Below, one piece after another: positions 21,026-41,073 of a DNA stretch of 56,335 nt (position 1 is its first letter; every line of letters starts with the position of its first letter). This DNA comes from Bacilli bacterium (GTDB lineage Bacteria; Bacillota_I; Bacilli_A; ML615J-28; CAG-698): positions 1-56,335 of the forward strand of contig JBFXGS010000001.1 of NCBI GenBank assembly GCA_050177775.1, read 5' to 3'. The notes beneath the pieces were generated by a model, which had not been told where the DNA came from, did no database searches, and saw only the letters and a list, made by a program, of their open reading frames with translations. A program made the position numbers and the translations under genes.

Positions 21026-22492
21026 TTAATTTTCAATCGTTATTTTTATTTCGAAAGCACGATTCCAAGGGAAACAAGCGTTATAATTTAATGGGAACAA
21101 AGGGTCCGATAAAGCATGAAGATTTGTCTGCAACAATTGAATTAATTCTTTACTTGGTTTAAAGTCAAAGATATTGAGCAAGTTGGAATGCAAATACTGA
21201 TGAATTTTTGGTCTGACGATATCTTGGTAAAAGCAATCATCAATAATCCGTTCGAGTAAAAATTGATGACATAGTTCGTGGTTCGTAAAGTGTTTATCAC
21301 AAGTAATTAAAGCGGTTGCTAAAAGGCTACCAGTGGCATTTGATGCGGTATTCCACCCGCTGAACCCCTTCAATTTTAAGAAATCAATTTGTTTTAACAA
21401 TTGATAGCAAGCCCCGTTGGGAGCATTAATATCAAGTAAAAAAACAGGAATGTTATCTTTTAAGATGATATTTAATTTGTCAATAAACGCCAGAGTATCG
21501 GGATCAAAAGATATTTCGAGCGGTTTTTCTCGATCGCACACTTCCATTTTCTGCGAGTTGTTGCTTTGGAAAACAGCAAGAACAAAGGATGCGGAAGCAA
21601 AATCATCGGTTCTTTTCATGCTAAGAATGGACGTCATTTTTTGCAGGTTTTCGATATACGGGCGATCTTCAAACGGTAAGGGGTTTTTTAATAATTCTTC
21701 ATTGGGATGTAAAAGGAAATAAGTTAAATCTTGTTTTCTTATCTCGCGAATGATTTTGGCAAGTATAAAGCAGCTGGCTTCATCGGTTCCATTATAAAGC
21801 CAAGCTTTAGTCGCTAATTGACCTTCTTTTATTTTTGCTTCTAAAAGATCGTGTTCCAATGTTTGTAAACCATTGGGCATGGAGTCTTCTTGTAGGAGCA
21901 GCAAGAAATCAATTTTGTTTTGTTTTAATAAATCAAGGATGATTTTATTGACCTCATGTTTTTTAATCCGGGCAATTTCGTATGTTTTAAGAATATCAAT
22001 TGGTATTTTAGAACTAATTTCTTGAAACTTTTCATAATCAGAAGGGTTTTTATATCTGAGAAATTGTCCTTTATACCGACTAAATTCATTTATTAATTTC
22101 CAATATTGGGTTGTTTTCTCATCAAAAGTTGATATTGAAGTCCGAAGAACGGTATCAAAAGCGTAAATCTTTAATTTTGGATTAAGCGTTTTTAAACTTT
22201 TTAAAAACTTTATTTTATAATCAAGTTCTTCGACCGAATAATTGGCCTTTCGGCTTTGAATTAAACCACCGCTAATAAGACTGTCAATTGGACAAATCAA
22301 ATAATCTAAATGGTTTACTTCATTTTTAAGAAAGTTTTGAATAGCGGTGAAATCAAGTTTTGAGTGCAGAGTTCCAAGCAAGTTTTTTTCCATCGTTATT
22401 AGGTTGATGTTGGCCATTTTTGCAAGAGCAATGACCCAATCATAATTGCAAGGACGACTATCTAGCGGAATTAATCCAACATTTGTTTTCAT
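21026..22492 (-). CDS. DUF4127 family protein, paralogue 1 (divergent copy)
   Basis: 488 aa with no signal peptide. Shares IPLDSRPCNY, DSLISGGLIQSR, QEDS, SGWNTASNATGS, LLERIIDD and FPWNRAFEI with the two paralogues at 36063 and 39500. Confidence 0.65.
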   Translation of the reverse strand: MKTNVGLIPLDSRPCNYDWVIALAKMANINLITMEKNLLGTLHSKLDFTAIQNFLKNEVNHLDYLICPIDSLISGGLIQSRKANYSVEELDYKIKFLKSLKTLNPKLKIYAFDTVLRTSISTFDEKTTQYWKLINEFSRYKGQFLRYKNPSDYEKFQEISSKIPIDILKTYEIARIKKHEVNKIILDLLKQNKIDFLLLLQEDSMPNGLQTLEHDLLEAKIKEGQLATKAWLYNGTDEASCFILAKIIREIRKQDLTYFLLHPNEELLKNPLPFEDRPYIENLQKMTSILSMKRTDDFASASFVLAVFQSNNSQKMEVCDREKPLEISFDPDTLAFIDKLNIILKDNIPVFLLDINAPNGACYQLLKQIDFLKLKGFSGWNTASNATGSLLATALITCDKHFTNHELCHQFLLERIIDDCFYQDIVRPKIHQYLHSNLLNIFDFKPSKELIQLLQTNLHALSDPLFPLNYNACFPWNRAFEIKITIEN

Positions 22493-22564: not shown

Positions 22565-22593
22565 TTGACTAGACATTTAGTAAATGATATAAT
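22565..22593 (+). promoter_or_regulatory. Consensus sigma-A promoter of the first sugar-ABC operon, overlapping an operator-like motif
   Basis: TTGACT (22565-22570), 17 nt, TATAAT (22588-22593). The 11-mer TTGACTAGACA recurs at 41045. Confidence 0.75.
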
Positions 22594-22604
22594 CAAATGT
22601 GAGA

Positions 22605-22618
22605 TGTAAACGTTATCA
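22605..22618 (+). promoter_or_regulatory. Catabolite-responsive element (cre, CcpA site)
   Basis: TGTAAACGTTATCA matches the cre consensus TGWNANCGNTNWCA at every defined position. It lies just downstream of the -10 box. Confidence 0.7.
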
Positions 22619-26672: not shown

Positions 26673-27097
26673 TGAAAGATTCTTTGAAAATCTTTTTATT
26701 AAGGTCGTGGGTCATTGGAGTTGTGGTCGTGGTTGGGCATTTTATGATGAAATTACAGCACTTGTCGATTGGTCTTATTTTAGGAGTAATTAATACCTTT
26801 TTAGTAGACTTGGTTGTTTTAACGATTTTAAAAGGAAATCAAACCCACTTTCCGAAAGGTTGGAAATTGTTTTTACGAACAATTCTTAATATTGTGACCG
26901 CCATTGGTCTTAGTTTAATTATTCGCTTAATAGATTTAGCACTTTTAAATAAAGGTTTAATTACCATGCCCATTGAAACTTTTCGTTTTATTGCTTATTA
27001 CCAAGTAATGTATTATTTTGGTTTCTTTGTTTATAAAAAAATCTTGGTCATAATAGAGAGGAAAAAATATGAGTCGAATACTAACAAGCCTTCATAA
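26672..27097 (+). CDS. Small hypothetical membrane protein (about 4 TM)
   Basis: 141 aa, hydrophobic, with no recognisable motif. Its start overlaps the permease stop by 1 nt. Confidence 0.5.
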   Translation: MKDSLKIFLLRSWVIGVVVVVGHFMMKLQHLSIGLILGVINTFLVDLVVLTILKGNQTHFPKGWKLFLRTILNIVTAIGLSLIIRLIDLALLNKGLITMPIETFRFIAYYQVMYYFGFFVYKKILVIIERKKYESNTNKPS

Positions 27098-27761
27098 TAA
27101 GCCCATGACGTTAGTTGTCAGTTTACCCGAAAACACTTATGAGATGGCCAAAGCCGCATGGGAAGCGCAAGCAGATGCCATCAAAGTTCACATTAATCTT
27201 TTTCATAATGCCAGCCTTGTCAAGTTTGGTTCTTTAGAAGAACAACGACCGGTTTTAGAAAAAATAATTCACGATTCACCGGTTCCGGTCGGAATCGTTG
27301 CCGGCCAAGACACAAAAACAAGCGAAGCAGTCATTGAAGAACTTGTGAAAATGGGATTTGATTTTATATCTTTGTATGGTCATCATATGCCAGTCTCGTT
27401 AGTTAATCGTCGAGATGTTTCTAATTTATTTGCCATTGATTATAGTTATTCTTTAGAAGAAGTTAAAACCATTACCAATTCTTTTATTGCGGATATTTTA
27501 GAATTATCCATTCTACCTCATGAAGAATATGGACAAAGGTTAAATGCCCGCGATTTGAGTAGATACTTAGCGTTTTCACAAATATCAAGCATTCCAACGC
27601 TTCTTCCTTCACAGCGTTTACTTTTGCCTAGTGATGTAAACATGATTGCAAAATGCGGGGTGAAGGCGATTATGATTGGCGCAATCGTTTTTGGTCATGA
27701 TTTGGATCAAATGTCCAAACAAATAATGCAGTTTAAACAAGCCATCAATCAATTAAATTAA
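27069..27761 (+). CDS. Hypothetical cytoplasmic protein, possibly a (beta/alpha)8 phosphate-binding barrel
   Basis: 230 aa. Alternating beta-alpha pattern (LVVSLP, ADAIKVH, PVGIVAGQ, DFISLYG, ILELSIL, IPTLLPSQ, GVKAIMIGAIVFG), reminiscent of NanE/ribulose-phosphate-binding barrels. AGAGGAAAA RBS. Confidence 0.45.
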   Translation: MSRILTSLHNKPMTLVVSLPENTYEMAKAAWEAQADAIKVHINLFHNASLVKFGSLEEQRPVLEKIIHDSPVPVGIVAGQDTKTSEAVIEELVKMGFDFISLYGHHMPVSLVNRRDVSNLFAIDYSYSLEEVKTITNSFIADILELSILPHEEYGQRLNARDLSRYLAFSQISSIPTLLPSQRLLLPSDVNMIAKCGVKAIMIGAIVFGHDLDQMSKQIMQFKQAINQLN

Positions 27762-27774
27762 AGGGGGATTAAAA

Positions 27775-28737
27775 ATGTCACTTACTGTTTTAGCAATTCC
27801 AACTTATGATAGTCGGGCTTTCGATGTCCGCCGTTTTATTCATCCACCCATTTTTGATGGCATTATCGACCAAGAAAAAAAGCCGCCGCAACCACCCGCT
27901 TGCTTTTTAGGAGCATGGTATCGCAAGGTGTTTTCCTCGTTTGATTCTTGGTTGGGAATTGAGGGCGTGATTGAACTTGGTGAATTTACTCCCGATGAAG
28001 CGCGCTTTAATCTTGACGGTAAAGGGCGATACATGGATGTCCCAAGCATTTATATGGGGGGAAAAAGTGCATTCGAGAGTGATGCCGGACTGGGTTTAGG
28101 ACCAACATATTTAACAGGTGATTTTTCGGCGGAGTTGTCAGGCTCCAGTCCCAAAATGGCTTACCGCCCGTTTTGGCGTTTTATCTATCAAGATGCAATG
28201 GAAATATCTGGAAATGTAAAACGTCGCGAGATTAATTCATGGAATGTCTCGGATCCAAGAAGTGTTATCTATAACTACTTTCCCGGCGATGTTTTAAGAA
28301 TGAGCGTCTATAGTCCGATTAAGGATTATTTACAATTGCATATTGAAGTAATTAAAACAACAACCATTCCCAAATATGTGAACATTAGAAAACAATACCA
28401 TTTGGTAAATGATCGTCCCGATGATTTTTTTAGTCCCATCTTTTTATCAAAAGGACATGGGTACAAAGATGCAGAATTTAAAAGAGTCAATGCCATCGAT
28501 CAATTTGGCAATGAAGGATTTCACGCGAAACCGACGAAAGCCGAAGTATCAAAAGCGACTTGGCATGAAACCTATTTATATCGGATGCTAGATGGGGAAA
28601 TAAAAAGAGTTCCTTTTTCAAAAGCAAGACAAACAAGTATGATTTGTCCCAATGTGGAAGCGGTTAATGTTGAACTAATCAACCCAGATATGGGAAGCGA
28701 GGCCATAACCATTCAACCAGGTAAAATTAAGGGGTAA
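27775..28737 (+). CDS. Orphan 320-aa cytoplasmic protein, paralogue A (family unassigned)
   Basis: No signal peptide or TM helix. Roughly 60 percent identical by eye to the 35090-36052 product. GGGGGA RBS. Confidence 0.6.
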   Translation: MSLTVLAIPTYDSRAFDVRRFIHPPIFDGIIDQEKKPPQPPACFLGAWYRKVFSSFDSWLGIEGVIELGEFTPDEARFNLDGKGRYMDVPSIYMGGKSAFESDAGLGLGPTYLTGDFSAELSGSSPKMAYRPFWRFIYQDAMEISGNVKRREINSWNVSDPRSVIYNYFPGDVLRMSVYSPIKDYLQLHIEVIKTTTIPKYVNIRKQYHLVNDRPDDFFSPIFLSKGHGYKDAEFKRVNAIDQFGNEGFHAKPTKAEVSKATWHETYLYRMLDGEIKRVPFSKARQTSMICPNVEAVNVELINPDMGSEAITIQPGKIKG

Positions 28738-28751
28738 AGGGGAAAATATTT

Positions 28752-30455
28752 ATGAATTTTAATGAGAAAACTTATATCTGTAAAGATGTTTATACGATTG
28801 ACGGCATCTTAAACTTTATCGGAAAAATCCCCGTTGATATCAACGGGAGAACAGTCACTTATAAAATGTATGCCAATTATCATGAACTGTTAGACAAGAA
28901 TGTTTTTGAGATAAAAAGCCAAGGAATTCGTTTATATGTTCACTTTGATGAAAAAATAAAACCAGATGGTTATTCGATAAACATTACCACAGAAAATAAA
29001 ATAATCATTAAAGTCGCCAATAACCGCGGGATTCGTTATGCTTTTAAAATGCTCAATGACCTTGTGAAAAAAACAAAACAAGGTTTTACGCTTCCAATTA
29101 TCTTAATTGAAGATGAACCTTCTTTTTCGGTTAGAGGGATTGTGGAAGGATATTATGGGGAACCATGGACTTTAGATGAACATCTTGATATGGCTGATTT
29201 TATGGATCAATATCGGTTGAATGCGTTTATGTACGCTCCCAAAACAGATCCATATCATCGCGATAAATGGTTTGAATTATATCCGGATGATCTTTTTTCC
29301 ACGCTTTGTTCAGTGAAAGACAAATTAGAGAGTAAGGATATTGATTTCTATTATTGCATTTCACCAGGCCATGCCAAGAAACCTGAAGACGGATTTAAAT
29401 ATGTCGGTGATGAAGATTTCGAAAGACTGTTTAATAAATTAAGACAAGTTATCGACATTGGCGTCAATCACTTCGGTTTGTTCTTAGATGATATTGATTA
29501 TCAACTGAGCGGAGAAAACCAACGAATTTTTAAACGGCCGGGAATTGCTCATGCCCATATTTGCAATAAAGTATATGATTTCTTAAAGGAAAACGTCCTT
29601 GACCCAACTCTGGTTATGTGTCCAACCGAATATCATCAAATTGGTCAGACCGAATACCGCCATGATTTAAAAGAATATTTAGATGATGAAATTGTAGTGT
29701 TTTGGACAGGAGATCGGGTTTGTGCTGAAGCAATTACAGAAAATGAGGCTAAAGAAACATTAGAAGCCTATGAAAAACCTATTTTTATTTGGGACAATTT
29801 TCCTGTTAGTGATTTTACATATGGAGTTAGAGAGTTTATTGCTCCGATTAAGAATCGATCCGCTAACTTAGGAGCCTATGCCGAAGGGTTCTTTATTAAT
29901 CCAAGCCTTCATTATCATATTTCAAAAATGGGGATGATTACGATGGCTCATTATGCTTGGAATACTTCCCACTATGATCCGGAAAAATCTTTTGAAATAG
30001 CGCTTAATAGTGTAAGTCGAGAATTTGCAAATTTAGGTCAAGCTTATTTTAATTATAATTATCCAAATGTTCTCTCCCATGGAAACCTAGAAATGGAAAA
30101 ACAAATGGTTGAAAACCATGATTATCCCGCCATTATAAATTATATGCAAGATATGTCTAAGAGTGCAAAAGCTTTATTGACCCTTAAAGAACCTATAATT
30201 GATGAATTGAAACCATGGTTACAAAGAGCTGTGGAAGAAGAAATAATGGTGAAAAAAATAATAGAAGGAAAAATTGTTAAACAAGAGTTGTTGGCCTTTT
30301 TTGAAAACATCAAGTTTTCAGGCGGAAAAATCCTTGATTATTTAATCGCTGATTTAAAACTATTTAGTGATGAAGAATATAGCACGCTCATTGCCAAAAG
30401 AAGAGGTGGAGAATGGTACCGCGTTTTTGAATATAAACGTTGGTCCAACCATTAA
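28752..30455 (+). CDS. GH84 family beta-N-acetylglucosaminidase (O-GlcNAcase/NagJ-like), cytoplasmic
   Basis: 567 aa. Motifs RGIVEGYYGEPWT, YAPKTDPYHRDKW, FGLFLDDIDY (catalytic DD), CPTEYH, FWTGDRV and IWDNFPVSDF. No signal peptide. Confidence 0.85.
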   Translation: MNFNEKTYICKDVYTIDGILNFIGKIPVDINGRTVTYKMYANYHELLDKNVFEIKSQGIRLYVHFDEKIKPDGYSINITTENKIIIKVANNRGIRYAFKMLNDLVKKTKQGFTLPIILIEDEPSFSVRGIVEGYYGEPWTLDEHLDMADFMDQYRLNAFMYAPKTDPYHRDKWFELYPDDLFSTLCSVKDKLESKDIDFYYCISPGHAKKPEDGFKYVGDEDFERLFNKLRQVIDIGVNHFGLFLDDIDYQLSGENQRIFKRPGIAHAHICNKVYDFLKENVLDPTLVMCPTEYHQIGQTEYRHDLKEYLDDEIVVFWTGDRVCAEAITENEAKETLEAYEKPIFIWDNFPVSDFTYGVREFIAPIKNRSANLGAYAEGFFINPSLHYHISKMGMITMAHYAWNTSHYDPEKSFEIALNSVSREFANLGQAYFNYNYPNVLSHGNLEMEKQMVENHDYPAIINYMQDMSKSAKALLTLKEPIIDELKPWLQRAVEEEIMVKKIIEGKIVKQELLAFFENIKFSGGKILDYLIADLKLFSDEEYSTLIAKRRGGEWYRVFEYKRWSNH

Positions 30456-30464
30456 GGAAGCCTT

Positions 30465-31133
30465 ATGATGATGGAAAAAATAAAAAATCAGTTAATTGTT
30501 TCTTGTCAAGCTAAAGATAATGAACCATTAAAAGATCCAATGATTATGGCAAAGATGGCAGCATCGGCACTACTTGGGGGAGCAAAAGGCATTAGGGCAG
30601 CGGGCGTTGAAGATATTAAAGCCATTAAAGCATTTAACGATACGCTTGTTATCGGTTTAATAAAACGAAATTACCCTGATTCTGAAGTTTACATTACACC
30701 AACCAAAGTTGAAGTTTTAAAGTTGGTTGAAAGTGGTTGTGAAATAATTGCTCTCGATGGAACAAATCGTCACCGCCCCAATCAAGAAACTTTGGTAAGT
30801 TTAATCGTATTAATCCATGCCAACAATCGTTTAGCCATGGCAGATATTTCAACATTTGAAGAAGCTTTAATGGCGCAACAAGCAGGTGCTGATTGTATTT
30901 CCACAACTTTATCGGGATACACAAGTTATTCAAAGCAACAAGCGGGGCCTGATTTAAAATTACTTAGTAAATGTGTTGCAAAATTACAAATACCCGTGAT
31001 TGCGGAAGGACGGATTCGTAACCCTCAAGATTTGAAACGCGTTTTAAAGAAAAAACCTTTTGCAGTTGTCATCGGAACAGCGATTACGAGACCTTCAGAA
31101 ATCACCAAAACATTTGTGGAGTGCTTCAAATGA
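30465..31133 (+). CDS. nanE: N-acetylmannosamine-6-phosphate 2-epimerase
   Basis: 222 aa with the NanE pattern (LIVSCQA..EPL, IALDGT, ADIST, TTLSGYT, IAEGRI, VVIGTAITRP). Confidence 0.88.
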   Translation: MMMEKIKNQLIVSCQAKDNEPLKDPMIMAKMAASALLGGAKGIRAAGVEDIKAIKAFNDTLVIGLIKRNYPDSEVYITPTKVEVLKLVESGCEIIALDGTNRHRPNQETLVSLIVLIHANNRLAMADISTFEEALMAQQAGADCISTTLSGYTSYSKQQAGPDLKLLSKCVAKLQIPVIAEGRIRNPQDLKRVLKKKPFAVVIGTAITRPSEITKTFVECFK

Positions 31134-32773
31134 ACCGAAAAACTATTGTAGATTCAACCCATGATATATTGGCTTTTTGGAATCGTGAATTTGCGAACAA
31201 CTATCCTATTTCCGAACGCTTATTTAAAGAAAAGATTCTTAATTCAAAGGAAGTTGCTTTGGACGGATCGTATTCACTATATGACCAGGAAGAGTATATT
31301 GGCAGCGTTATTCTAAAATTTAACCAAATTAATGATAAAAAGCTTCAAGATAATGCTTATATTTCCTTTTTATTTGTGAATCCCAAATTTCGTAACCGCG
31401 GGTATGGTTCCCTTTTTATCAGTGATGTAATTCGTATTTGTATTGAAAATGAAAAATCAATGCTATACGTCGGCGGAGACAATGATTGTTTATTTTCGGG
31501 TGTTTTTTTAGATAACAATGATTTCGTTCATCAATTTTTTAAGGACCATCGGTTTAACATTGCTTATAAAAATTATAACTTAATATGTAAAACCTCACCC
31601 CAAGTACCAAATGATGAATATGAATATTCCACTTTAAAAACAGAAGAAGAACGAAACGAATTATTAAAACAAGTTCGCAAATTGTTTCCATCGCGTTGGC
31701 ATTATGATATTCAGAATTGTGAGCCGCAAGCGTTCTTCGTTGCGAAAGAAAACAAGGTAATTGTCGGGTTCGTTCGGTTAAACACTCCGCTTTTTTCACA
31801 AATTGCCAATAGTGTTAATACTTACCCTTTGTACAAAATGCTGGGAGGGATTGGACCGGTAGCCATTTTTCCCGAGAAAAAAGGCTCGGAACTAGCCAAC
31901 AACATCGTAAAACAAGCCGTAAAACATTTGTTTGATTTGGGTTGTTCAGAGGTAATAGTTGACTGGACAAACTTTATTGATTTCTTCAAGCAATCAGGAT
32001 TTTCCAATGTATCTAACTCCTATGTTCTTTACGAGATGCGCATTCGTGAAAAAATAAAAGGACCAAAAACGCATATCTATCAAGTTATCGAAAATGATTT
32101 GCGGCATGAAATCCTTGAAGGAAAATATAAACACGGGGACATTATTCCAAGTGAGGTGGAATTAGCGGCCACGTATAAAGTGACGAGAATGACTGTTCGT
32201 CAAGCCATTAGTAATTTGCTAATTGACGGCTTTCTTTATCGACATAAAGGCCGCGGGACTTTTGTAACTTACAACAAGCGGAACATTGATTTTGAGGATA
32301 AACCTTTCTTTTCTTTCACAAATGATAAAAATAATAACGGGGAATTAAGAACGACGGTTTTACTCTTTGAAATTAGAGCCGCTGATGAATTATTAGCCTT
32401 ACGTTTACAACTAAAATTAGGGGATCCTCTCTATTATGTGGAAAGACTGACTGCCCTAGAAAATAAGCCGTTGCTATTTGAAAGACTTTATCTTCCTGCT
32501 AATATGTATAATAATTTAAGCGTTGAAGTCTTTCAAAAATCATTTTATGAATATGCAAAAAACGAATTGCATTGGAATTTACTTTCCTACAATATCCATA
32601 TTGAGGCCAGAGGATTAAGTGGTCGAGCTGCGGAAGTGTTGCAATTATCAACGGGAGATCCAACTCTTTATTGCAGCAGTGTGACTCATTTAGCGAATGG
32701 ACGCGCCATTCTTTATTCTCGAACTTTCTTCAATGCCGAACAAGTAAACTTTTCTCATCAATTTTCTTGTTAA
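31130..32773 (+). CDS. Fusion protein: tandem GNAT-like domains + GntR/HutC-family wHTH + UTRA effector domain
   Basis: N-terminal roughly 310 aa has two GNAT-like cores (FVNPKFRNRGYGSLF; GPVAIFPEKKGSELANNIV). This is followed by IYQVIENDLRHEILEGKYKHGDIIPSEVELAATYKVTRMTVRQAISNLLIDGFLYRHKGRGTFV and a UTRA-like C-terminus. ATGA overlap with the nanE stop. Confidence 0.8.
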   Translation: MNRKTIVDSTHDILAFWNREFANNYPISERLFKEKILNSKEVALDGSYSLYDQEEYIGSVILKFNQINDKKLQDNAYISFLFVNPKFRNRGYGSLFISDVIRICIENEKSMLYVGGDNDCLFSGVFLDNNDFVHQFFKDHRFNIAYKNYNLICKTSPQVPNDEYEYSTLKTEEERNELLKQVRKLFPSRWHYDIQNCEPQAFFVAKENKVIVGFVRLNTPLFSQIANSVNTYPLYKMLGGIGPVAIFPEKKGSELANNIVKQAVKHLFDLGCSEVIVDWTNFIDFFKQSGFSNVSNSYVLYEMRIREKIKGPKTHIYQVIENDLRHEILEGKYKHGDIIPSEVELAATYKVTRMTVRQAISNLLIDGFLYRHKGRGTFVTYNKRNIDFEDKPFFSFTNDKNNNGELRTTVLLFEIRAADELLALRLQLKLGDPLYYVERLTALENKPLLFERLYLPANMYNNLSVEVFQKSFYEYAKNELHWNLLSYNIHIEARGLSGRAAEVLQLSTGDPTLYCSSVTHLANGRAILYSRTFFNAEQVNFSHQFSC

Positions 32774-32775
32774 CT

Positions 32776-32798
32776 AGTGCCATTAAATGGCACTTTTT
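32776..32798 (+). terminator. Intrinsic terminator ending the first operon
   Basis: AGTGCCAT-TAA-ATGGCACT hairpin followed by TTTT. Confidence 0.75.
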
Positions 32799-32802
32799 CA
32801 AT

Positions 32803-32836
32803 TTGTATATACAAGTTATTTTTTAAATGGTATAAT
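32803..32836 (+). promoter_or_regulatory. Promoter of the second operon with a perfect 12-bp palindrome operator candidate
   Basis: TTGTATATACAA (32803-32814) is a perfect palindrome overlapping the -35 region. TATAAT lies at 32831-32836. Confidence 0.6.
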
Positions 32837-32855: not shown

Positions 32856-35090
32856 ATGAGGAAAATTTTTATGGCTTTTTTGTTAGCAACGCTTTTATCC
32901 GGGGTTAGTATTAATGCCGAAACCACTGCCATTGTTGATGATTTTTTAAACGGGAAGGATGTGGTCCGCTATGAAAACTATTTGGTTTATTATAGTTTCA
33001 ATTCGACTTTAAAATCACCTGCAAACCAATGGGGATATGAAATTGCGGTTAGCAGTAATCACTTTGTGATTGATTGTGACACAAACGCAACCATGGAAAC
33101 AGGAGGATATATCATATCCGGGCATGGGACGAAAAAAACGACGTTGCAAAATGTCAAAGTTGGTGATCAAGTTAGTATCAATTGGGAAACTAAACAAATC
33201 GTGATTACGCGCGATAGTTTGAAAAGCCCGCAATTTTTAGCTCATCGTTTTAAAACAACCTCGGAAAACTATTACAATCAAGCAATCGAGGGCGGATATG
33301 ACTTTAACAGAACGCTTGTTGAACATATGCTTAATTTAAATGATAATGATTTACTGCAGATTGATGCCATCGTTGAAAAAGAAAGTCCCACAAGCAATGA
33401 AATTGATTTGGTTAAGATACTGGCTGATGGCATTGATGCTAGGATGCTATCCATCAAGTTTTTAACTTCTTTCTCTTCAACTACGGAAATTAGAGCTTTA
33501 TGGCATCGACCCAATGCGGCAGGCATTAAAGAGAACAACTTAGAAAATTTAAAGGCGTTTGTGCAAGAAGTAAAGGACCTTGGGTTTAATACCATTTTTG
33601 TGGAGACGCTTTGGAATGGATATGTCAGTTATCGGTCGGATATCATTGCTACGCATCCGCAAGTTGCTAATTTTACCTATGGTGAAGAATATAAAAACGA
33701 TTATATTGCGGCTTTAATTGGTGAAAGTCAAAAATTAGGCATTGATGTTCATGCTTGGTGCCACACCTTTAATGCGGGGAATGCAACCTACAAAGCCACT
33801 TCCATTAAAGATGAATGGTTATTGGAAGATTATCAAGGACTTACTTTACATCCAAATAGTTATGGAGGCAGTTATTATTTAGATCCATCTAATCCGGAGG
33901 TACTGACTTACTTGACAAGCGTTTTTTCGGAAATGGTTGAAAAATACGATTTTGCGGGAATTCAATTAGATTACATACGTTATTATGATAATAATTATTT
34001 ACAAACGCCGATTCGTGATAGTGGTTACGGATTACTCCCGGAAACACAATTTAAAACAGAATATTCATTAACCGGTGATGTTCGAACCCTCATTAAACAA
34101 AACACCTATTTGGAATTATGGAATGAATGGCGCCAAAACAATGTAACCAATGCTGTTCGAACTTTTTCTTCGGCTTTAAGAAGGCTTAATCCGCAGATCA
34201 TCATATCCGCGGATGTTGTTTCGAGTATCAATTATGCGAAAAGTACATATATGCAAGACTGGAAAACATGGGTTGAAAAAGGATACATTGATTTATTATG
34301 CCCAATGATTTATACCGGAAGTGCCGAAACTATTGAAAAAGACTCGTTAGCGATAATGAATCAAATAAAAAACCTTTCGTTTTTAGCTTCAGGGATTGCT
34401 CCAATTTATTATGGGCATTCGTTAGAAATCAATCATGATGAATTCGTCGCAACAAAAAGCGGCGATGGTTTAGCCTTTTTTGCAAGCCAAAACATCGTTG
34501 GATTAAGTGATGTTACTCAATCAATTAAAACAGGGGTTTTTAGAAACACGGCAGTATCTCCGCTTCGAGAAACCAAATTGGTTATCACAGAAGCTTTGTT
34601 GAACTTGAAAAGCTATGTTGAAAAGGCGATGGCGAATGAACCGCAACAATTAATGTTTTTAAACCATGTCGAAGAAATGATGACAATGAAGTGTGATAAC
34701 CCGGCTGATTATCAAGCCCTTATGGAAAAAATGATTTTTGTAAGAACGATAACTCCGTACATCTCTTCTTCTTCAATGCGAGAAATATTCTCACAAGAAT
34801 TAACTCAATTAATTCATATTCTTGATGTGAAAATAAGTCGAGAAATGATTGCTTATGGTTTTTATAACCCTGATGATGAAGAAAGGCCCAATCCGGATCA
34901 ATTTGATTACCCAATCGATAATCCAGAACCCGAACCTGAACCGAAACCCGAGCCGGAACCAGAACCGGAACCCGAGCCTGAACCAGAGCCGGATGAAGAA
35001 AAAGGTTGTTTTAAAGTGTTTTCGTTTCCTTCTGTTTTGCTTCTTGGATTAATTTTTATCTTTATTCGAAAAAAAGAAAGAGGTTATTAA
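32856..35090 (+). CDS. Secreted, C-terminally anchored GHL10 (DUF187/YngK-like) glycoside-hydrolase-like protein
   Basis: Signal peptide MRKIFMAFLLATLLSGVSINA. GHL10-like core RALWHRPNAAGIKENNLENLKAFVQEVKDLGFNTIFVETLWNGYVSY ... GIQLDYIRY. C-terminal PE repeat, KGC, TM helix and RKKERGY tail. Start trimmed to ATG 32856. Confidence 0.75.
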   Translation: MRKIFMAFLLATLLSGVSINAETTAIVDDFLNGKDVVRYENYLVYYSFNSTLKSPANQWGYEIAVSSNHFVIDCDTNATMETGGYIISGHGTKKTTLQNVKVGDQVSINWETKQIVITRDSLKSPQFLAHRFKTTSENYYNQAIEGGYDFNRTLVEHMLNLNDNDLLQIDAIVEKESPTSNEIDLVKILADGIDARMLSIKFLTSFSSTTEIRALWHRPNAAGIKENNLENLKAFVQEVKDLGFNTIFVETLWNGYVSYRSDIIATHPQVANFTYGEEYKNDYIAALIGESQKLGIDVHAWCHTFNAGNATYKATSIKDEWLLEDYQGLTLHPNSYGGSYYLDPSNPEVLTYLTSVFSEMVEKYDFAGIQLDYIRYYDNNYLQTPIRDSGYGLLPETQFKTEYSLTGDVRTLIKQNTYLELWNEWRQNNVTNAVRTFSSALRRLNPQIIISADVVSSINYAKSTYMQDWKTWVEKGYIDLLCPMIYTGSAETIEKDSLAIMNQIKNLSFLASGIAPIYYGHSLEINHDEFVATKSGDGLAFFASQNIVGLSDVTQSIKTGVFRNTAVSPLRETKLVITEALLNLKSYVEKAMANEPQQLMFLNHVEEMMTMKCDNPADYQALMEKMIFVRTITPYISSSSMREIFSQELTQLIHILDVKISREMIAYGFYNPDDEERPNPDQFDYPIDNPEPEPEPKPEPEPEPEPEPEPEPDEEKGCFKVFSFPSVLLLGLIFIFIRKKERGY
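34924..34992 (+). repeat. Imperfect GAACCN hexanucleotide repeat encoding a (Pro-Glu)n linker
   Basis: Encodes PEPEPEPKPEPEPEPEPEPEPEP. A similar tract lies at 39367-39420. Confidence 0.85.
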
Positions 35091-36052
35091 TGAGCTTAAC
35101 AATAAAAGTAATACCGACTTTAGACAGTCAATATGTCGATAGTCGCAAGTTTCAAAACGCCAAAATTTATTATGGAAGTATCGACAATGAAATAAAAGCT
35201 CCCATTTCACCAAAGTGTTTTTTAGGAGCTTGGTACCGAAAAGTTTTTTCATCCTTTGACTATTGGCTTGGAATAGAAGGAGTTATAAAACTGGGAGAAT
35301 TTATTCCTGACAAAGCCCGTTTTAATCTTGATGGAAAAGGCCGATTTATGGATAATCCTTCAATATATATGGGTGGAAAGAGCCAAAAAGAAAGCGATGC
35401 TGGCCTAAACTTAAATCTTTCTTATCTTTCGTTTGATACCAAAGATGATTTGCAATTATCTTCGCCTAAAGTGGCTTACCGTCCTTTTTGGCGTTACATT
35501 TACAATATGGCAACGGATGAAAGCGGAAATGTGGATCGTCATGAAGTTAATTCATGGAACGTTCATAATCCCCGTCATTTGGGAAATTATTATTTTCCGG
35601 GTGATGTAATTAAAATGAGCGTATTTAGTCCGTTGAGGGACTATTTACAATTGCGAATTGATGTCATCGAACCGACCAACAATCCTAAATATGTGAAAAT
35701 ACGCAATAATTACAATTTGGAAAACAATTTACCAACATCATTTTTAAGTCCGCTGTTCTTTTCCAAAGGACATGGTTACGAAAAAGCAGAATTTAAAAGA
35801 GTGAACTCCATTGACCAATATGGCAACGAAGGATTTGTTGCCCAAAATACTAATGCTGAAGTTACGGAGGCTCTGTGGCAAGAAGTGTATTTATATCGGG
35901 AGATTAATGGGGAGATTTGTAAAATACCTTTTTTACAAAATCGCCAAACATCCATGATTTGTCCAAATACAGATGCGATAACCGTAAGGAATCATCCTTT
36001 TGACCCAACTGGGGAAACCATACAAATTCATCCCGGGAAAATTAATCTTTAG
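35090..36052 (+). CDS. Orphan 320-aa cytoplasmic protein, paralogue B
   Basis: Same length and colinear blocks as 27775-28737 (CFLGAWYRKVFSSFD, WLGIEGVI, ARFNLDGKGR, SIYMGGKS, AYRPFWR, FPGDV..MSV, SKGHGY..AEFKRVN, RQTSMICPN). TAATG overlap with the upstream stop. Confidence 0.6.
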   Translation: MSLTIKVIPTLDSQYVDSRKFQNAKIYYGSIDNEIKAPISPKCFLGAWYRKVFSSFDYWLGIEGVIKLGEFIPDKARFNLDGKGRFMDNPSIYMGGKSQKESDAGLNLNLSYLSFDTKDDLQLSSPKVAYRPFWRYIYNMATDESGNVDRHEVNSWNVHNPRHLGNYYFPGDVIKMSVFSPLRDYLQLRIDVIEPTNNPKYVKIRNNYNLENNLPTSFLSPLFFSKGHGYEKAEFKRVNSIDQYGNEGFVAQNTNAEVTEALWQEVYLYREINGEICKIPFLQNRQTSMICPNTDAITVRNHPFDPTGETIQIHPGKINL

Positions 36053-36062
36053 GAGAAAAGGC

Positions 36063-37565
36063 ATGAAAAAAATTTTATATATTCCACTTGATGAACGCCC
36101 TTGTAATTATGATTTTCCGAAAAGTATTTTTACAAGTTCCTCATACTCCGTCATTGTTCCACCCATTAGTATCATGGGTGATAAAAAAAATCCGGCTGAC
36201 CATGAAGCTTTAGAAACCTTTTTACTTGAAGAATCAAAGGAAGCGGATGGTTTAGTTATTTCTCTTGACACATTAATTTATGGTGGAATTGTGCCTTCGA
36301 GGCTCCATTATTTGGAAGCCTCTGTTTTGAAAGAAAGGTTATTGTTTTTAAAGAAAATCAAGCTAATTCACCCCCATTTACCCGTTTTTGCTTTTCAACT
36401 TATTATGCGTTGTCCTCAAAACAATTCGAGCGATGAAGAACCGGAATACTATAAACATGCAGGTCGGAATATTTATCTGCAAGGTTATTTTCAAAACAAA
36501 CAACAACTTGGCCTTCTCAGCGTTGATGAAGAAAAAATTTGGAAGACCATCACCATTGAGGATGCTTATTTAAATGATTTTCTAAGTCGAAGAGCTTTGA
36601 ATAAGCAAATTAACATTTTTGCGCTTGATTTGTTAGAACAAGGGACAATTGATTTTTTGGTTGTTCCTCAAGATGATGCCAGTGAATTTGGTTACACGGC
36701 AATGGATCAAGTTGATATTAGATCGGTAATTCGCCAAAAGCAACTAATGCTTAAAGCTTATATGTATCCTGGGGCCGATGAAGTTGGATGTATTTTAATG
36801 AGTCGGATGATTAACCATTTAGAAAATAAAAAGCCGGCCGTGTTTGTGAAATACCCATCCCCGACCACCCCGATGGTAATTCCTTGTTTAGAAGATCGCT
36901 ATGTCGATGTAACCATCAAATACCATATTGCTTGTGCCGGAGGAATTACGGTTCCTTCGCTGAGTGATGCCGATATTGTTTTGCTTCCCTTTTTAGGGGC
37001 AACCAAAATGATACCACACCCGAATAATGAAGCCAGTTTAGATGTTGATGTTATGTGCAATTTTGTGGAAATGATGGAGTTTGCGGAATATGCCATTAAA
37101 AAAGGCTATCCGGTTGCTATTGCTGATTTAGTTTATTTAAATGGTGGTTCTTTAGATATCTTAAATTTTCTTGAAAGCAAAGGATTAACCATGAGGGTTG
37201 CCGCTTATGCGGGATGGAATACCTCAAGTAATGCTTTAGGAACAGCCATTGCTCAAGCTATGCAGTTTTGGCATCAAGGATCTACCAAACTTCACCAAAC
37301 ATTTCTCATCAAGAGGTATGTCGAAGACGTGGGGTATTGTGGAGTAGTGCGAGAGAATGTTACCAAACAACTGGCAAAATATGGTATGGATTACTTTAAT
37401 GTGAAAGAAAAAAGCGGGCTTGCCGCCGATCTTGTCAAACAAGAACTAAACTTGTTCATTGAAGAATATCTTCCAAGCATTTCTAACCGATTCGCTTTGG
37501 AGGATGTTAATCTGCCATGGCGTCGAATGTTTGAAGTTGATTTCCAAGTCGTTCTAAAGGATTAA
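36063..37565 (+). CDS. DUF4127 family protein, paralogue 2
   Basis: 500 aa from MKKILYIPLDERPCNY. AGGAGAAAAGG RBS. The track ORF starts upstream inside the previous gene. Confidence 0.65.
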   Translation: MKKILYIPLDERPCNYDFPKSIFTSSSYSVIVPPISIMGDKKNPADHEALETFLLEESKEADGLVISLDTLIYGGIVPSRLHYLEASVLKERLLFLKKIKLIHPHLPVFAFQLIMRCPQNNSSDEEPEYYKHAGRNIYLQGYFQNKQQLGLLSVDEEKIWKTITIEDAYLNDFLSRRALNKQINIFALDLLEQGTIDFLVVPQDDASEFGYTAMDQVDIRSVIRQKQLMLKAYMYPGADEVGCILMSRMINHLENKKPAVFVKYPSPTTPMVIPCLEDRYVDVTIKYHIACAGGITVPSLSDADIVLLPFLGATKMIPHPNNEASLDVDVMCNFVEMMEFAEYAIKKGYPVAIADLVYLNGGSLDILNFLESKGLTMRVAAYAGWNTSSNALGTAIAQAMQFWHQGSTKLHQTFLIKRYVEDVGYCGVVRENVTKQLAKYGMDYFNVKEKSGLAADLVKQELNLFIEEYLPSISNRFALEDVNLPWRRMFEVDFQVVLKD

Positions 37566-37566
37566 C

Positions 37567-39507
37567 ATGAAAAAGTTAACGTTTATTCTTTGCTTTATTT
37601 TTGTTGTTTTGTTCTTTGTTTTTTTTAGAGTTAACACTTTTGCTCACTCGATGAGTGTTGAGAAAAATGACACGATTAAAAGTGGGACAGTTATACCAGG
37701 AATAACTTACGAAAGCTTTTCGGGAATGACAATAAATGATGCCCAAACCACCAGCAATCAAAGAATTAGTTGGGTGAAAAAATCCGCAAGTGCTCATGCG
37801 AAAATAGTTTCCTGGAGTAAACTAAAAGAAAACGGCATTGAAGGCGCGAACCTATTAAATCTGGCAAGTGATTTTGAGAGTAAAAATCCAGGATGGCGAG
37901 TGCTTGCCGGAATTAATGGGGACTATTACGACCCGACGACTAAAACGCCCGTGAATGCCCTTGTACAACAAGGTGATGTTGTAAAAGGAACAAACTTTAC
38001 ATTATCGAGATATTTTTCAATTGGCTTTAACGATGATAGCACTGGCTATGTAACATCGAAAACCAATGTTTTAGAAACAAAGTACGCTTTAACGATTTAT
38101 GATGAATCAAGGACTCGGGTTATTCTGGAAGTGGAACTTCAAGGATTAAACACGTATCCTAACAGCAAACAGACAAGTGTTTATTATAATAGTCAATATC
38201 CTTATCAAATTCCTAATGCCCGTTATTTTCGTGTAAATGATTTAGATTATGCCATCAATTACGGGTCTTATTTATTTAAAGGAAAAGTCAATGAAGAAGT
38301 AAATAATACCGAAACCCATTTAGGACAATTAGTGATCGCATCTTTAGATGAACGTGTTCAATATTTACTTGAAAAAAATCCATATATCCGGGTTCAAAAG
38401 CATTTAAAAGATGTCAATAACGGTTATGACAATATTATTGGAGTCGGAAGTCAACCTCTAAAAGATGGGACAATCTTAGAATTTTCCGAAATAAATGACC
38501 AAAATCTTGATTTCGCAAAACTTCGTGCACCGCGTTCTTCAATTGGCTTTACCCATGACGGCAGTTTTGTGATGGCTACCATGGATGGAAGGCAGTCGTT
38601 AATGGCCGGAGTTGACTTACGAGAAGAAGCCATGGTTATGGCATCTTTGGGGTGCCATCAAGCCTTTAATTTAGATGGTGGGGGATCAACCCAGTTAATT
38701 GTTCGAGAAAATGATCAATTGGTGATGTTAAACTCGCCTTCCGAAATCTATCGGAATAATGCCAATGGGGTTTTAATAGTGGAACCCGATGTTGATATTG
38801 AGGTTGACATTTCCCATTTATCTTTTTCATCGCTTGACTTACAATACTCTTTGGTGCCGCAAACCGGGGTGAATATTATAAGCCATTCTTTATATGCTAA
38901 TAATGTTCCGATAACAACGAGCCCAGAAACGATTACCATTGATTCTTTAATTTATTCGGGAATTAATTATTTGTCTTTGGTTGTGAAATACGAAAAACAA
39001 GGATTTATTTATGAACGATGTTTGTGGGTTGAACGAATAAATCTTGCTAATTATGGACTTGTTGAACCTATTGTTAAGGAAAAGCCCCATGATTTTACGG
39101 TTGTATTTGAAAAAGATGAAACTATCAAGGGCTTTACCGCGGTTATTAATTTTGATGATCCCGATAACACAATCACAAAACTTTATTTAGCATATGAAGG
39201 TAATGAAGAAATCGCCTTAAAAAGAATCAACGGGTATGAAGTCGATTTTTATAATGTTGAAAATAATTCATCTTTTTCTTTTTCGATTATTTATTATTAT
39301 CGAATTAACACGATAAATGCGGTATCGGAAACTTATGAAACTTTGTTTCCTTATGTTTATCAAGCGGAAACAGAGCCCGAGCCTGAACCTGAACCTGAAC
39401 CAAAACCAGAACCGGAAACTAAAGGTTGTTTATCTTGGGAAACACTATTACCTATTTCGCTTTTGATGTTAGGTTTTGGATGGTTTAAGAGGAGGAAACA
39501 TGAATAG
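37567..39507 (+). CDS. Secreted, C-terminally anchored phosphodiester glycosidase (NAGPA/DUF2233 domain) protein
   Basis: Signal peptide. Motifs GINGDYYD and RSSIGFTHDGSFVMATMDGRQ...GVDLREEAMVMASLGCHQAFNLDGGGSTQLIV, typical of the NAGPA domain. Also a C-terminal beta-rich region, PE repeat, KGC, TM helix and KRRKHE tail. Confidence 0.8.
   Translation: MKKLTFILCFIFVVLFFVFFRVNTFAHSMSVEKNDTIKSGTVIPGITYESFSGMTINDAQTTSNQRISWVKKSASAHAKIVSWSKLKENGIEGANLLNLASDFESKNPGWRVLAGINGDYYDPTTKTPVNALVQQGDVVKGTNFTLSRYFSIGFNDDSTGYVTSKTNVLETKYALTIYDESRTRVILEVELQGLNTYPNSKQTSVYYNSQYPYQIPNARYFRVNDLDYAINYGSYLFKGKVNEEVNNTETHLGQLVIASLDERVQYLLEKNPYIRVQKHLKDVNNGYDNIIGVGSQPLKDGTILEFSEINDQNLDFAKLRAPRSSIGFTHDGSFVMATMDGRQSLMAGVDLREEAMVMASLGCHQAFNLDGGGSTQLIVRENDQLVMLNSPSEIYRNNANGVLIVEPDVDIEVDISHLSFSSLDLQYSLVPQTGVNIISHSLYANNVPITTSPETITIDSLIYSGINYLSLVVKYEKQGFIYERCLWVERINLANYGLVEPIVKEKPHDFTVVFEKDETIKGFTAVINFDDPDNTITKLYLAYEGNEEIALKRINGYEVDFYNVENNSSFSFSIIYYYRINTINAVSETYETLFPYVYQAETEPEPEPEPEPKPEPETKGCLSWETLLPISLLMLGFGWFKRRKHE
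39367..39420 (+). repeat. Imperfect GAACCN hexanucleotide repeat encoding a (Pro-Glu)n linker
   Basis: Encodes ETEPEPEPEPEPKPEPET, immediately before AAAGGTTGT (KGC). Confidence 0.85.
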
Positions 39508-41011
39508 AATCATTTATGTTCCCCTTGATGAACGTCCCTGTAATTATCGATTTCCTTTTCAAATATTTAATCAAAAAAACACGGAAATAATTACTTGTCC
39601 AGAACATTTGATGGGTTATAAAAAGCGACCGGCCCAAATCAACCAACTTAATGAATGGTTAATGATCAATACTAAGCATGCTTATGGTTTGGTTGTTGCC
39701 CTAGATACACTTATTTATGGAGGAATTGTACCCTCACGACTCCATAATTTGCCTTTAGATGTGTTAATAAGTCGATTAACTATTTTAAGAAGTTTGAAAA
39801 AACAAAATCCTAATTTGATTATATATGGATTTTCCTTAATTATGCGATGCCCCGAGTATAATTCTGCCGATGAAGAACCGGAATACTTTCAAAACCACGG
39901 AAAAAACATTCACCTTTTGGGTTATTTGTCCCACATGAAAGAATTAAACATTCTTAGTAAATCCGATCAAGAAAAACTTGATAATATCCAAATCCCCAAG
40001 GAATACATCGATGATTTTTCACATCGTCGTTATGTTAACCAACAAATTAATATCGCTGCATTAGAGCTTGTGAAAGAAGAAATCATTACCTTTTTCACAA
40101 TTCCTCAAGATGATTCTTCAAAGTATGGTTGGACGGCCAAAGATCAAATCAAGATTAGAGAGGTTATAAAAAAACATAAACTGTTTAAGAAAGTTTTTAT
40201 GTATCCTGGTGCGGATGAAGCTGGTTGTGTTTTACTCAGTCGAATGGTTTGTCTTAACAATCATCTTCAACCGAAAGTATATATTAAATACCCCGGTCCC
40301 ACTTGTTCGAAAATAATCCCCTCCATCGAAGATCGCTATTTGGATACGATGGTAAAATACCACATTATTGCTTGTGGCGGGATAGTAGTTGATGCTTTAA
40401 AGGAATGTGATGCGGTTTTATTGATCAATGCTCCTGCAGATTACATGCGCTCCTCATTTAATAAAGAAGAACCCGGCCGGGGACTGGAAGTTCAGAGAAA
40501 CCTTGTTGAAGCCATCGAGTTTATTGAATACGTGGGCCAAAAACAAAAAGCCATTATTATTGGCGATATTACTTATGGAAATGGCAGTGATTTAGAAATT
40601 TATCATTATTTATCTTTAAAGAAAATGCTTTTTAAACTGGCGGGTTTTGGAGGATGGAACACAGCTTCCAACAGTATCGGGCAAGCCATCGCCATGGGTT
40701 TTTCGTGCTTGCTAAACGGGTTTACCAAACAACATTTAGCTTTTTTAATCAGCCGCTATGTTGAAGATATCGGTTATTGTGGTTATGTTCGTCAAACAAT
40801 TATGAAGGACTTTTTGCCTAGACATCCTCAGTTAAACTATTTCGATGTAAAAAGCAAAGCCGGAATCGTCGCAACAGAAGTTAAGGATCAATTAAAGTTG
40901 TTTGTACAAACCAAAATGCCTGATTTATGGCCCCACATTATTATTAAGAAAGTTGAATTACCTTGGAAACGCATGTACGAAATCGATTTAGAGGTTGAAT
41001 ATCGACCCTAA
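39500..41011 (+). CDS. DUF4127 family protein, paralogue 3
   Basis: 503 aa from MNRIIYVPLDERPCNY. AGGAGGA RBS. 8-nt overlap with the upstream gene. Roughly 45-50 percent identical by eye to paralogue 2. Confidence 0.65.
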   Translation: MNRIIYVPLDERPCNYRFPFQIFNQKNTEIITCPEHLMGYKKRPAQINQLNEWLMINTKHAYGLVVALDTLIYGGIVPSRLHNLPLDVLISRLTILRSLKKQNPNLIIYGFSLIMRCPEYNSADEEPEYFQNHGKNIHLLGYLSHMKELNILSKSDQEKLDNIQIPKEYIDDFSHRRYVNQQINIAALELVKEEIITFFTIPQDDSSKYGWTAKDQIKIREVIKKHKLFKKVFMYPGADEAGCVLLSRMVCLNNHLQPKVYIKYPGPTCSKIIPSIEDRYLDTMVKYHIIACGGIVVDALKECDAVLLINAPADYMRSSFNKEEPGRGLEVQRNLVEAIEFIEYVGQKQKAIIIGDITYGNGSDLEIYHYLSLKKMLFKLAGFGGWNTASNSIGQAIAMGFSCLLNGFTKQHLAFLISRYVEDIGYCGYVRQTIMKDFLPRHPQLNYFDVKSKAGIVATEVKDQLKLFVQTKMPDLWPHIIIKKVELPWKRMYEIDLEVEYRP

Positions 41012-41044
41012 TTATATCCTTGTGAAAACCTTTTCAATCTTTTC

Positions 41045-41073
41045 TTGACTAGACAAGTAAAGGAATGTATAAT
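41045..41073 (+). promoter_or_regulatory. Consensus sigma-A promoter of the giant lipoprotein gene, overlapping an operator-like near-palindrome
   Basis: TTGACT (41045-41050), 17 nt, TATAAT (41068-41073). CTTGACTAGACAAG (41044-41057) pairs at 6 of 7 palindrome positions. Confidence 0.75.

Follow-up and report, generated by a model that had tools for sequence, protein, structure and literature searches.

A GlmA-like tandem GNAT module joined to the N-terminus of a NagR-like regulator in uncultured Bacilli

GntR/HutC regulators are among the commonest one-component systems of bacteria, and UTRA is normally the only domain through which they receive a signal. In a stretch of 56,335 nucleotides from a Bacilli bacterium (contig JBFXGS010000001.1; this whole stretch is called the window below), the usual order is inverted and an additional, enzyme-derived module is present: a single gene at positions 31130-32773 on the plus strand encodes 547 amino acids, in which two GNAT domains and a linker precede a winged helix-turn-helix (wHTH) domain and a UTRA domain, as judged from the open reading frame (ORF), Pfam and an alignment of orthologues. 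How did an acetyltransferase-like module come to stand before the DNA-binding domain of a regulator, and what might it still do there?

Extent, rarity and origin of the fusion gene

A sequence-only reading of the window had proposed a double GNAT region ahead of a GntR/HutC repressor, and Pfam bears this out: GNAT sequence extends over approximately residues 1-305, with Acetyltransf_1 matched in two stretches, and is followed by GntR at residues 317-379 and UTRA at residues 404-539. The frame is uninterrupted from an ATG at 31130 to a stop ending at 32773; an alternative in-frame GTG is located at 31121, and the ATG is favoured since all orthologues open with MNRK or MKRK at their N-terminus. 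Immediately upstream lies nanE, encoding N-acetylmannosamine-6-phosphate (ManNAc-6-P) 2-epimerase (30465-31133, plus strand; PF04131, E 3e-59), whose TGA overlaps the ATG of the fusion gene (ATGA). The translational coupling to nanE that had been read from this overlap is upheld, and L001 and L004, two syntenic loci, show the identical 4-bp overlap. The junction sequence VLYEMRIREKIKGPKTHIYQVIEN was found in the fusion ORF, and the linker proper (residues 304-314; 32039-32071, plus strand) is variable, with 27% identity between the window and L001. As stand-alone GNAT relatives terminate 5-10 residues past a 'YVLYE' motif, the two halves were joined cleanly end to start with a linker of about 12 residues, which is the remnant of the GNAT tail and the GntR N-terminus.

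Odd fusions in metagenome assemblies are sometimes frameshift errors, and this prior is all that speaks for an assembly or sequencing artefact or for a recent, pseudogene-like read-through of two separate genes. Both are of negligible probability. Five other 90%-identity clusters, drawn from independent assemblies, contain the ORF in the same unbroken form and are 59-99% identical and syntenic, and five GTDB species genomes carry the fusion in one frame with no stop; because the in-frame ORF recurs in this way, an artefact is excluded, and the monophyly of the fused clade and a proportion of nonsynonymous differences (pN) far below that of synonymous differences (pS) in every domain rule it out as well. 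The continuity of the frame at the junction, without frameshift or stop, is therefore accepted as it was first read, and the independent assemblies make the resequencing proposed to exclude an artefact unnecessary.

The architecture had been called unusual from the sequence, and the database searches agree. When 1.84 billion representatives at 50% identity were searched with phmmer, the best 150 matches included one fused representative (P0003), which is the window protein's own cluster; all other matches to the GNAT half were stand-alone GNATs, and the remainder were GntR/HutC proteins without GNAT. A word-indexed search recovered five further full-length fusion clusters, all from uncultured 'Bacilli bacterium' assemblies, together with stand-alone tandem GNATs of about 310 residues that are 33-45% identical. 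Three proteins examined as possible further fusions were rejected: P0066 (510 residues, two matched stretches), taken at first for a second fusion family, proved to be GntR-UTRA duplicated in tandem, with GNAT absent; in P0079 and P0151 the N-terminal extension is short and contains no Pfam domain.

The origin of the fusion is indicated by its unfused relatives. The nearest stand-alone GNAT (P0011, 44% identical) is encoded in loci with the order NanE, GNAT, GntR/UTRA, and the last two of these genes overlap (L010-L013). A scan of GTDB species genomes yielded 16 loci from Izemoplasmatales, 'Tenericutes' or Bacilli metagenome-assembled genomes (MAGs), 5 of them fused and 11 split and adjacent; in the split loci (L021-L031) the two genes are in different frames and are separated by a 1-2-nt gap or share an 8-bp overlap of the ATGAATAA type. 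Judged from these gene orders, the ancestral state is read as an adjacent, translationally coupled pair in which the GNAT gene preceded the GntR gene, and the position of the wHTH domain in mid-protein is explained by this order. Loss of the stop within such a short overlap would have been enough to yield one protein. In neighbour-joining trees constructed for each half, the fused sequences form a single clade in both, and therefore one fusion event is indicated, restricted to a few uncultured Izemoplasmatales-related Mollicutes/Bacilli species. Two fusion-bearing MAGs are labelled 'uncultured Bacteroidales' (L018, L020, L024, L025), yet their loci share synteny and 63-72% identity with those of Izemoplasmatales/Bacilli MAGs; these labels are probably wrong.

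All five fusion-bearing genomes of the GTDB scan also carry a split pair in a second, related sugar locus. Within the window, a tblastn search for a stand-alone GlmA-like paralogue found the fusion gene alone. Toward the window end, NHL/TPR and Yip1 genes (52056-54216) match the start of the split-type locus (L006, L010, L014), in which the gene order is DUF5696, ABC transporter, aBig_2, (NanE), GNAT, GntR, GxDLY/GDSL esterase, a 230-residue protein, DUF4127, FAD oxidoreductase and ROK kinase. On account of this synteny, the window genome probably carries an intact split pair just past the window end.

The acetyltransferase half and its active site

The first GNAT domain covers approximately residues 1-160 (31130-31609, plus strand; best Acetyltransf_1 stretch at residues 43-117), and the second approximately residues 161-303 (31610-32038, plus strand), where alignments and Foldseek place the catalytic domain of GlmA and RmNag. 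GlmA of Clostridium acetobutylicum is represented by the structures 5KF1, 5KF2, 5KGA (D287N) and 5KGH (Y297F), the variants being identified from their PDB titles, and RmNag of Rhizomucor miehei by 4ZM6. In phmmer alignments, residues 12-291 of the fusion protein match GlmA (5KF1) end to end at residues 11-302 (E 4e-10), and the N-terminal half also matches the 328-residue protein of 5KGA and 5KGH and, more weakly, the C-terminal region of 4ZM6. The AlphaFold2 (AF2) model is confident over residues 1-300, with predicted local distance difference test (pLDDT) values of 80-95, and with this model Foldseek returned 5KF1 and 5KF2 as the best matches (template modelling score of 0.82-0.86 on the target), followed by 4ZM6. 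Alignment and model together assign the module to the tandem-GNAT fold of GlmA-type glucosamine/glucosaminide N-acetyltransferases.

In RmNag the first GNAT is non-catalytic and binds acetyl-CoA structurally, the second is catalytic, its glucosamine pocket is lined by D834 and W835, and the Y842A substitution abolishes transacetylation (PMC4680927). In the fusion proteins the acetyl-CoA motif of the first GNAT (R88-x-x-G91-x-G93) is intact and invariant. The residues of the amino-sugar pocket, W190 and D278-W279-T280, are likewise invariant in fused and split proteins, D278 and W279 being aligned with D287 of GlmA and with D834/W835 of RmNag.

Against this background of conservation, residues specific to the fusion were sought by comparing alignment columns of 5 fused and 38 stand-alone GNAT modules and retaining those at least 80% conserved in the stand-alone proteins and different in every fusion. 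Only five columns were retained: Gly to Arg141, Leu to Val244, Arg/Gln to Lys251, Gly to Glu/Asp254 and Tyr to Phe286. The same five-column partition is exact in sequences taken straight from genomes (6 fused versus 11 split), and four of the five changes fall in residues 244-286, the stretch that holds the acetyl-CoA and catalytic motifs. Phe286 (codon TTC, 31985-31987, plus strand) aligns with Tyr297 of GlmA and Tyr842 of RmNag; this position is Tyr in 38/38 stand-alone and 11/11 split-pair GNATs and Phe in all fused proteins. Glu254 (codon GAA, 31889-31891, plus strand) replaces the central Gly of the Q/R-x-x-G-x-G/A loop (G263 of GlmA, G810 of RmNag), which is retained in 32/38 stand-alone and 11/11 split-pair GNATs; it is Glu or Asp in 6/6 fused proteins and acidic in no stand-alone protein. 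The window's catalytic-GNAT loop, K251-G-S-E254-L-A256, thus departs from the R-x-x-G-x-G or Q/R-x-x-G-x-G/A acetyl-CoA motif. Acetyltransferases are classically inactivated by replacement of Gly with Glu in the acetyl-CoA loop, as in Drosophila mof1. Val244 is probably harmless, since RmNag also has Val at that position.

The module is not decaying. As synonymous sites are saturated, pN and pS are given instead of dN/dS. In comparisons of orthologues, both GNAT domains have a pN of 0.10-0.27 with pS saturated at about 0.8, and both are under purifying selection. Between the window and L001 the GNAT domains are 60-62% identical and the UTRA domain 51%, so that the GNAT half is at least as conserved. 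Mean identity among fusions is 68% for GNAT and 68% for GntR, compared with 42% and 76%, respectively, in split pairs, and the relative rates of the two halves have shifted after fusion.

Since the invariant Tyr and the central P-loop Gly are replaced, loss or attenuation of catalysis in the fused module is the more likely reading of these alignments. The sequence-only reading had left open whether the module would acetylate or sense an amino sugar; with these replacements and a sugar pocket that is kept, the comparison leans to a sensing or structural role and makes acetylation the less favoured half of that suggestion.

The main rival, which is compatible with the sequence data and which we consider rather unlikely, is an active enzyme merely tethered to a plain repressor, in which fusion fixes co-expression at 1:1 and no allostery is involved. 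The split genes already overlap or abut, so a small indel would suffice and the fusion could be near neutral; the purifying selection on the GNAT domains, the intact sugar pocket and the intact CoA motif of the first GNAT all agree with a working N-acetyltransferase. Less easily accommodated are the replacement, in every fusion, of a Tyr that none of the stand-alone or split-pair proteins has lost, the acidic P-loop residue confined to fusions, and the clustering of the fusion-specific changes in the acetyl-CoA/catalytic stretch, as well as the retention of an intact paralogue in each fusion genome and the changed relative rates of the two halves.

It is also conceivable, with a very low probability, that the GNAT module was retargeted to acetylate a protein, such as lysines of its own wHTH domain or another factor, or a different small molecule. 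GNATs switch acceptors readily, and the fungal Ngs1, with a GH3 plus GNAT scaffold like that of RmNag, acetylates histones in response to N-acetylglucosamine (GlcNAc; PMC5063960). However, the changes in the fusion proteins affect the acetyl-CoA and catalytic motifs and the acceptor pocket is the conserved part, and efficient use of acetyl-CoA by the second GNAT is made less likely by the acidic residue in its pyrophosphate-binding loop.

The regulator half, its candidate operators and the locus

The C-terminal half comprises a GntR wHTH domain (32072-32269, plus strand; PF00392 at residues 317-379, E 2e-19, 69 bits against a cut-off of 27) and a UTRA effector and dimerisation domain (32270-32770, plus strand; PF07702 at residues 404-539, E 1e-25, 90 bits against a cut-off of 23.8). 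For its 237 residues the best PDB matches are 2WV0 and 4U0V, the Bacillus subtilis NagR/YvoA (E 2e-24), followed by YydK and DasR, with full-length alignment. HutC-type NCBIfam models cover residues 313-545, all below their equivalog cut-offs (best GntR_LSA1692, 123 bits against 275). With respect to the MocR class, no aminotransferase domain was found in the fusion protein, and MocR-type NCBIfam models match the wHTH alone (residues 312-389). These matches support the HutC/NagR-type assignment made originally, and by homology the C-terminal half is a NagR-like GntR/HutC regulator.

In NagR, Arg48 reads G at position -4 of the operator, Arg38 reads G at -5, and Gly69 lies in the wing (PMC4333415). 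The equivalents of Arg48 (R353) and Gly69 (G374) are conserved in all fused and split proteins. Arg38 corresponds to V343 in the window protein and to Val, Ser or Thr among fused and split proteins, at a position that is variable among HutC members. The UTRA domain of the window protein keeps the equivalents of NagR S88, F89, T90, R133, E145, S165 and Y167 and has changes at R135 (to Thr), R211 (to Ser), E222 (to Leu) and Y228 (to Phe). Of the residues that contact N-acetylglucosamine-6-phosphate (GlcNAc-6-P) or glucosamine-6-phosphate (GlcN-6-P), namely T90, R133, R135, E145, S165, Y167 and Y228, 5/7 are present. The equivalents of S88, F89, R133, E145, S165 and Y167 are conserved in the pocket and T90 varies; R135, the second phosphate-clamping Arg, is kept in 9/11 split regulators and lost in 4/5 fused ones. 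A phosphosugar effector is likely from this pattern, and its specificity or the affinity for it may have shifted.

The sequence-only reading had put forward three operator candidates, and three intergenic boxes were indeed located, sharing the dre-like pattern TTG-N2-TA-N2-CA[A/T] with G at -4 and T at -5. The first, O1 (TTGACTAGACAT, 22565-22576), is invariant in L004, L001 and L018 and overlaps the -35 of a TTGACT-17-TATAAT promoter (score 11/12) that serves the operon running from the ABC transporter through GH84 and nanE to the fusion gene. The second, O2, is the perfect palindrome TTGTATATACAA (32803-32814), of which no other exact copy occurs in the window; it is invariant in L001, L016, L017, L018 and L019, its flanks diverge, and it overlaps the -35 TATACA (32808-32813) of the extended -10 promoter TGGTATAAT, with the -10 at 32831-32836, of the GHL10-DUF4127-NAGPA genes. 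The third, O3 (TTGACTAGACAA, 41045-41056), has a 10-mer identical to that of O1, is kept in L004, is replaced by TTGACTATACAA in L001, and overlaps the -35 of the promoter (score 11/12) of a gene for a 1793-residue surface protein. The three best-scoring promoter matches on the plus strand of the locus each have one of these boxes across their -35, and the boxes are invariant or nearly so in loci whose fusion proteins are 59-83% identical, where neighbouring intergenic DNA diverges. The T at -5 matches the Val in place of the G-5 reader Arg38, and the pairing of Arg48 with G-4 is kept. As O1 is located at the promoter of the operon that contains the fusion gene, autoregulation is implied. The case for these candidate operators is one of position and phylogenetic footprinting, and not of counts. 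Intergenic regions of split-type loci did not contain the strict pattern, so the regulators encoded there, at about 55% identity, probably recognise another box.

The presence of several candidate operators raises an improbable alternative, that the GNAT module is mainly an extra oligomerisation module producing tetramers or higher forms that bridge the three sites, with ligand sensing left to UTRA. Each chain would carry two potentially self-associating modules, GlmA reportedly being a dimer; the linker to the wHTH is short (about 12 residues), and the three operators lie approximately 10 kb and 8 kb apart. Yet a pure scaffold has no need of W190 and D278-W279-T280, which are kept, and 8-10 kb is long for looping.

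Other elements flank the boxes. A terminator-like hairpin (AGTGCCAT-TAA-ATGGCACT, 32776-32794) followed by a T-run (the whole at 32776-32799, plus strand) closes the operon holding the fusion gene, and its position is conserved in L004 and L001. A cre-like box (TGTAAACGTTATCA, 22605-22618, plus strand) 3' of the -10 in the O1 promoter agrees exactly with TGWAANCGNTNWCA, the sole such match in the window where 0.14 are expected by chance, and a related cre-like box lies at approximately 41022-41036, upstream of the third promoter. Since both are conserved in L004 and L001, a layer of catabolite repression over the specific repressor is suggested. The mechanical ORF start of GHL10 at 32787 is probably too early. 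It would place the conserved operator and promoter (32803-32836) inside the coding region, and the ATG at 32856, which has a AAAGGAAG ribosome-binding site and a signal-peptide-like N-terminus, is preferred for this reason.

The fusion gene is located within a large conserved glycan/amino-sugar locus (21026-46485), composed mostly of uncharacterised families and syntenic in L001-L004 and L016-L019. Genes of this locus include GH84 (28752-30455), GHL10 (32856-35090), a NAGPA-type phosphodiester glycosidase (37567-39507) and the 1793-residue surface protein (41104-46485). DUF4127 paralogues are encoded at 21026-22492 (minus strand), 36000-37565 and 39476-41011, with a fourth DUF4127 gene in the split-type locus; a sequence search found no PDB relative of the DUF4127 proteins, and no literature on this family was found. 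Two 320-residue paralogues (27775-28737 and 35090-36052; 62% identical), one in each of the first two transcription units, are present in all syntenic loci and gave no Pfam or NCBIfam match. The 230-residue protein encoded at 27069-27761, also without a family match, weakly resembles NanE (24% over 127 residues, E 0.004) and is perhaps a diverged paralogue with a TIM barrel; in split-type loci its counterpart, likewise of about 230 residues, stands beside DUF4127. The secreted enzymes GHL10 and NAGPA have C-termini of the same build (34950-35090 and 39380-39507), in which a (PE)n/(EP)n repeat leads to 'KGC' and on to a hydrophobic helix with a basic tail behind it. This looks like a shared C-terminal anchoring or sorting signal; none of the NCBIfam CTERM sorting-signal models match these (PE)n-KGC-transmembrane tails.

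Proposed function and comparison with known systems

With a probability that we would put at about even, the fusion protein is an autoregulated NagR-like repressor of the amino-sugar/glycan locus in which an attenuated GlmA-type module is kept as a second ligand input or as a scaffold. The protein would repress the three promoters of this utilisation locus, with UTRA dimerising the chains and the wHTH domains binding the three dre-like boxes over the -35 hexamers. Binding of GlcNAc-6-P, GlcN-6-P or ManNAc-6-P in the UTRA pocket would release the DNA, as in NagR; ManNAc-6-P and GlcNAc-6-P are candidates because NanE is encoded in the operon. The GNAT module, which keeps its acceptor pocket for amino sugars and, in the first domain, an acetyl-CoA site, would be catalytically attenuated. 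It would act on the wHTH through the short linker, either as a second input that responds to an unphosphorylated amino sugar, to acetyl-CoA or to both, or as a scaffold for dimerisation. Acetylation would be supplied by the intact split-pair paralogue of the same genome. The more specific proposal that a GlmA-type enzyme became a non-catalytic sensing domain, producing a two-input HutC repressor with amino sugar/acetyl-CoA read N-terminally and a sugar phosphate read at UTRA, is offered tentatively and is the less probable of the two formulations.

Several observations weigh against this interpretation. The central P-loop Gly is not absolute, as 6/38 stand-alone proteins have K, N or Q in its place, and the GlmA Y297F variant reportedly stayed active, Tyr297 being said to serve mainly in substrate binding (Dopkins et al. 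2016), so that Phe286 alone is no proof of inactivity. Strong purifying selection on the GNAT half fits a working enzyme equally well. For the operators, the strict box pattern is not enriched across the window (4 found versus 2.3 expected), and since the boxes share some positions with -35 hexamers, conservation of the promoters themselves could account for part of what is seen. In the regulator half the AF2 model is of low quality (pLDDT below 50 at residues 333-405, with a shallow alignment) and allows no inference on contacts between the halves.

If the two-input proposal is correct, the protein is a natural before-and-after case of an enzyme turning into a regulatory domain, and it would be the first member of the HutC group to carry a sensor at its N-terminus in addition to UTRA. 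Because fused and split forms are present in the same genomes and the active-site changes track the fusion, the transition from enzyme to sensor is directly testable, and so is the Rosetta-stone inference of an interaction between GlmA-like and NagR-like partners where these are split. With its three candidate operators, the fusion protein is also the probable master regulator of a large, conserved glycan-utilisation locus. The practical impact is modest: only a few uncultured species have the fusion, and it is built from well-known families.

The GNAT (GlmA type) and GntR/HutC (NagR type) families and the concept of the enzyme-regulator hybrid are already known. A literature search returned nothing on a pairing of glucosamine N-acetyltransferase with GntR; domain-architecture databases were outside this search, so that unrelated combinations of GNAT and GntR are possible. 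With GlmA and RmNag the fusion shares the tandem-GNAT fold, the Asp-Trp pair of the sugar pocket and the acetyl-CoA motif of the first GNAT; it differs in that their Tyr (Y297/Y842) is Phe286, their R-x-x-G-x-G loop is K-x-x-E-x-A, and the protein runs on into a DNA-binding regulator. NagR/YvoA of B. subtilis and DasR of Streptomyces coelicolor, repressors of GlcNAc utilisation, have in common with it the wHTH and UTRA domains, the core phosphosugar pocket and the Arg48 and Gly69 positions; the candidate boxes follow the dre site GTGGTCTAGACCAC in their inverted-repeat layout, centred on CTAG/TATA, and in G-4. In contrast to NagR, the fusion has an enzyme-derived module of about 310 residues before the wHTH, Val for Arg38, T instead of G at -5 of the box, and changes at Arg135, Arg211, Glu222 and Tyr228.

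Enzyme-repressor hybrids are known in other families, such as BirA and PutA. MocR/GabR proteins likewise combine an enzyme fold with a DNA-binding domain in a one-component regulator, and GabR (4N0B) is among the matches of the fusion's wHTH; however, their aminotransferase-like domain lies C-terminal to the wHTH and replaces the effector domain, whereas the module described here is N-terminal and added to a complete UTRA regulator, and the enzyme parts are not homologous. In Ngs1, the GlcNAc sensor-transducer of Candida albicans, a degenerate GH3 domain is the sensor, the GNAT is active on histones and DNA is reached via Rep1 (PMC5063960). Like the pseudo-GNAT of mammalian O-GlcNAcase, Ngs1 resembles the fusion in that an amino-sugar enzyme scaffold, with a GNAT region of the RmNag type, has been repurposed for control of transcription by GlcNAc, with catalytic residues lost in one domain; it differs in being eukaryotic and in reaching DNA through a partner protein and not a fused wHTH, and by analogy it may be regarded as a functional counterpart on a related scaffold. 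What is new in comparison with these systems is the GNAT-GNAT-wHTH-UTRA architecture, with its enzyme-derived module N-terminal to a complete HutC regulator, together with its extreme rarity, the coexistence of fused and split states within the same genomes, and the active-site changes that track the fusion.

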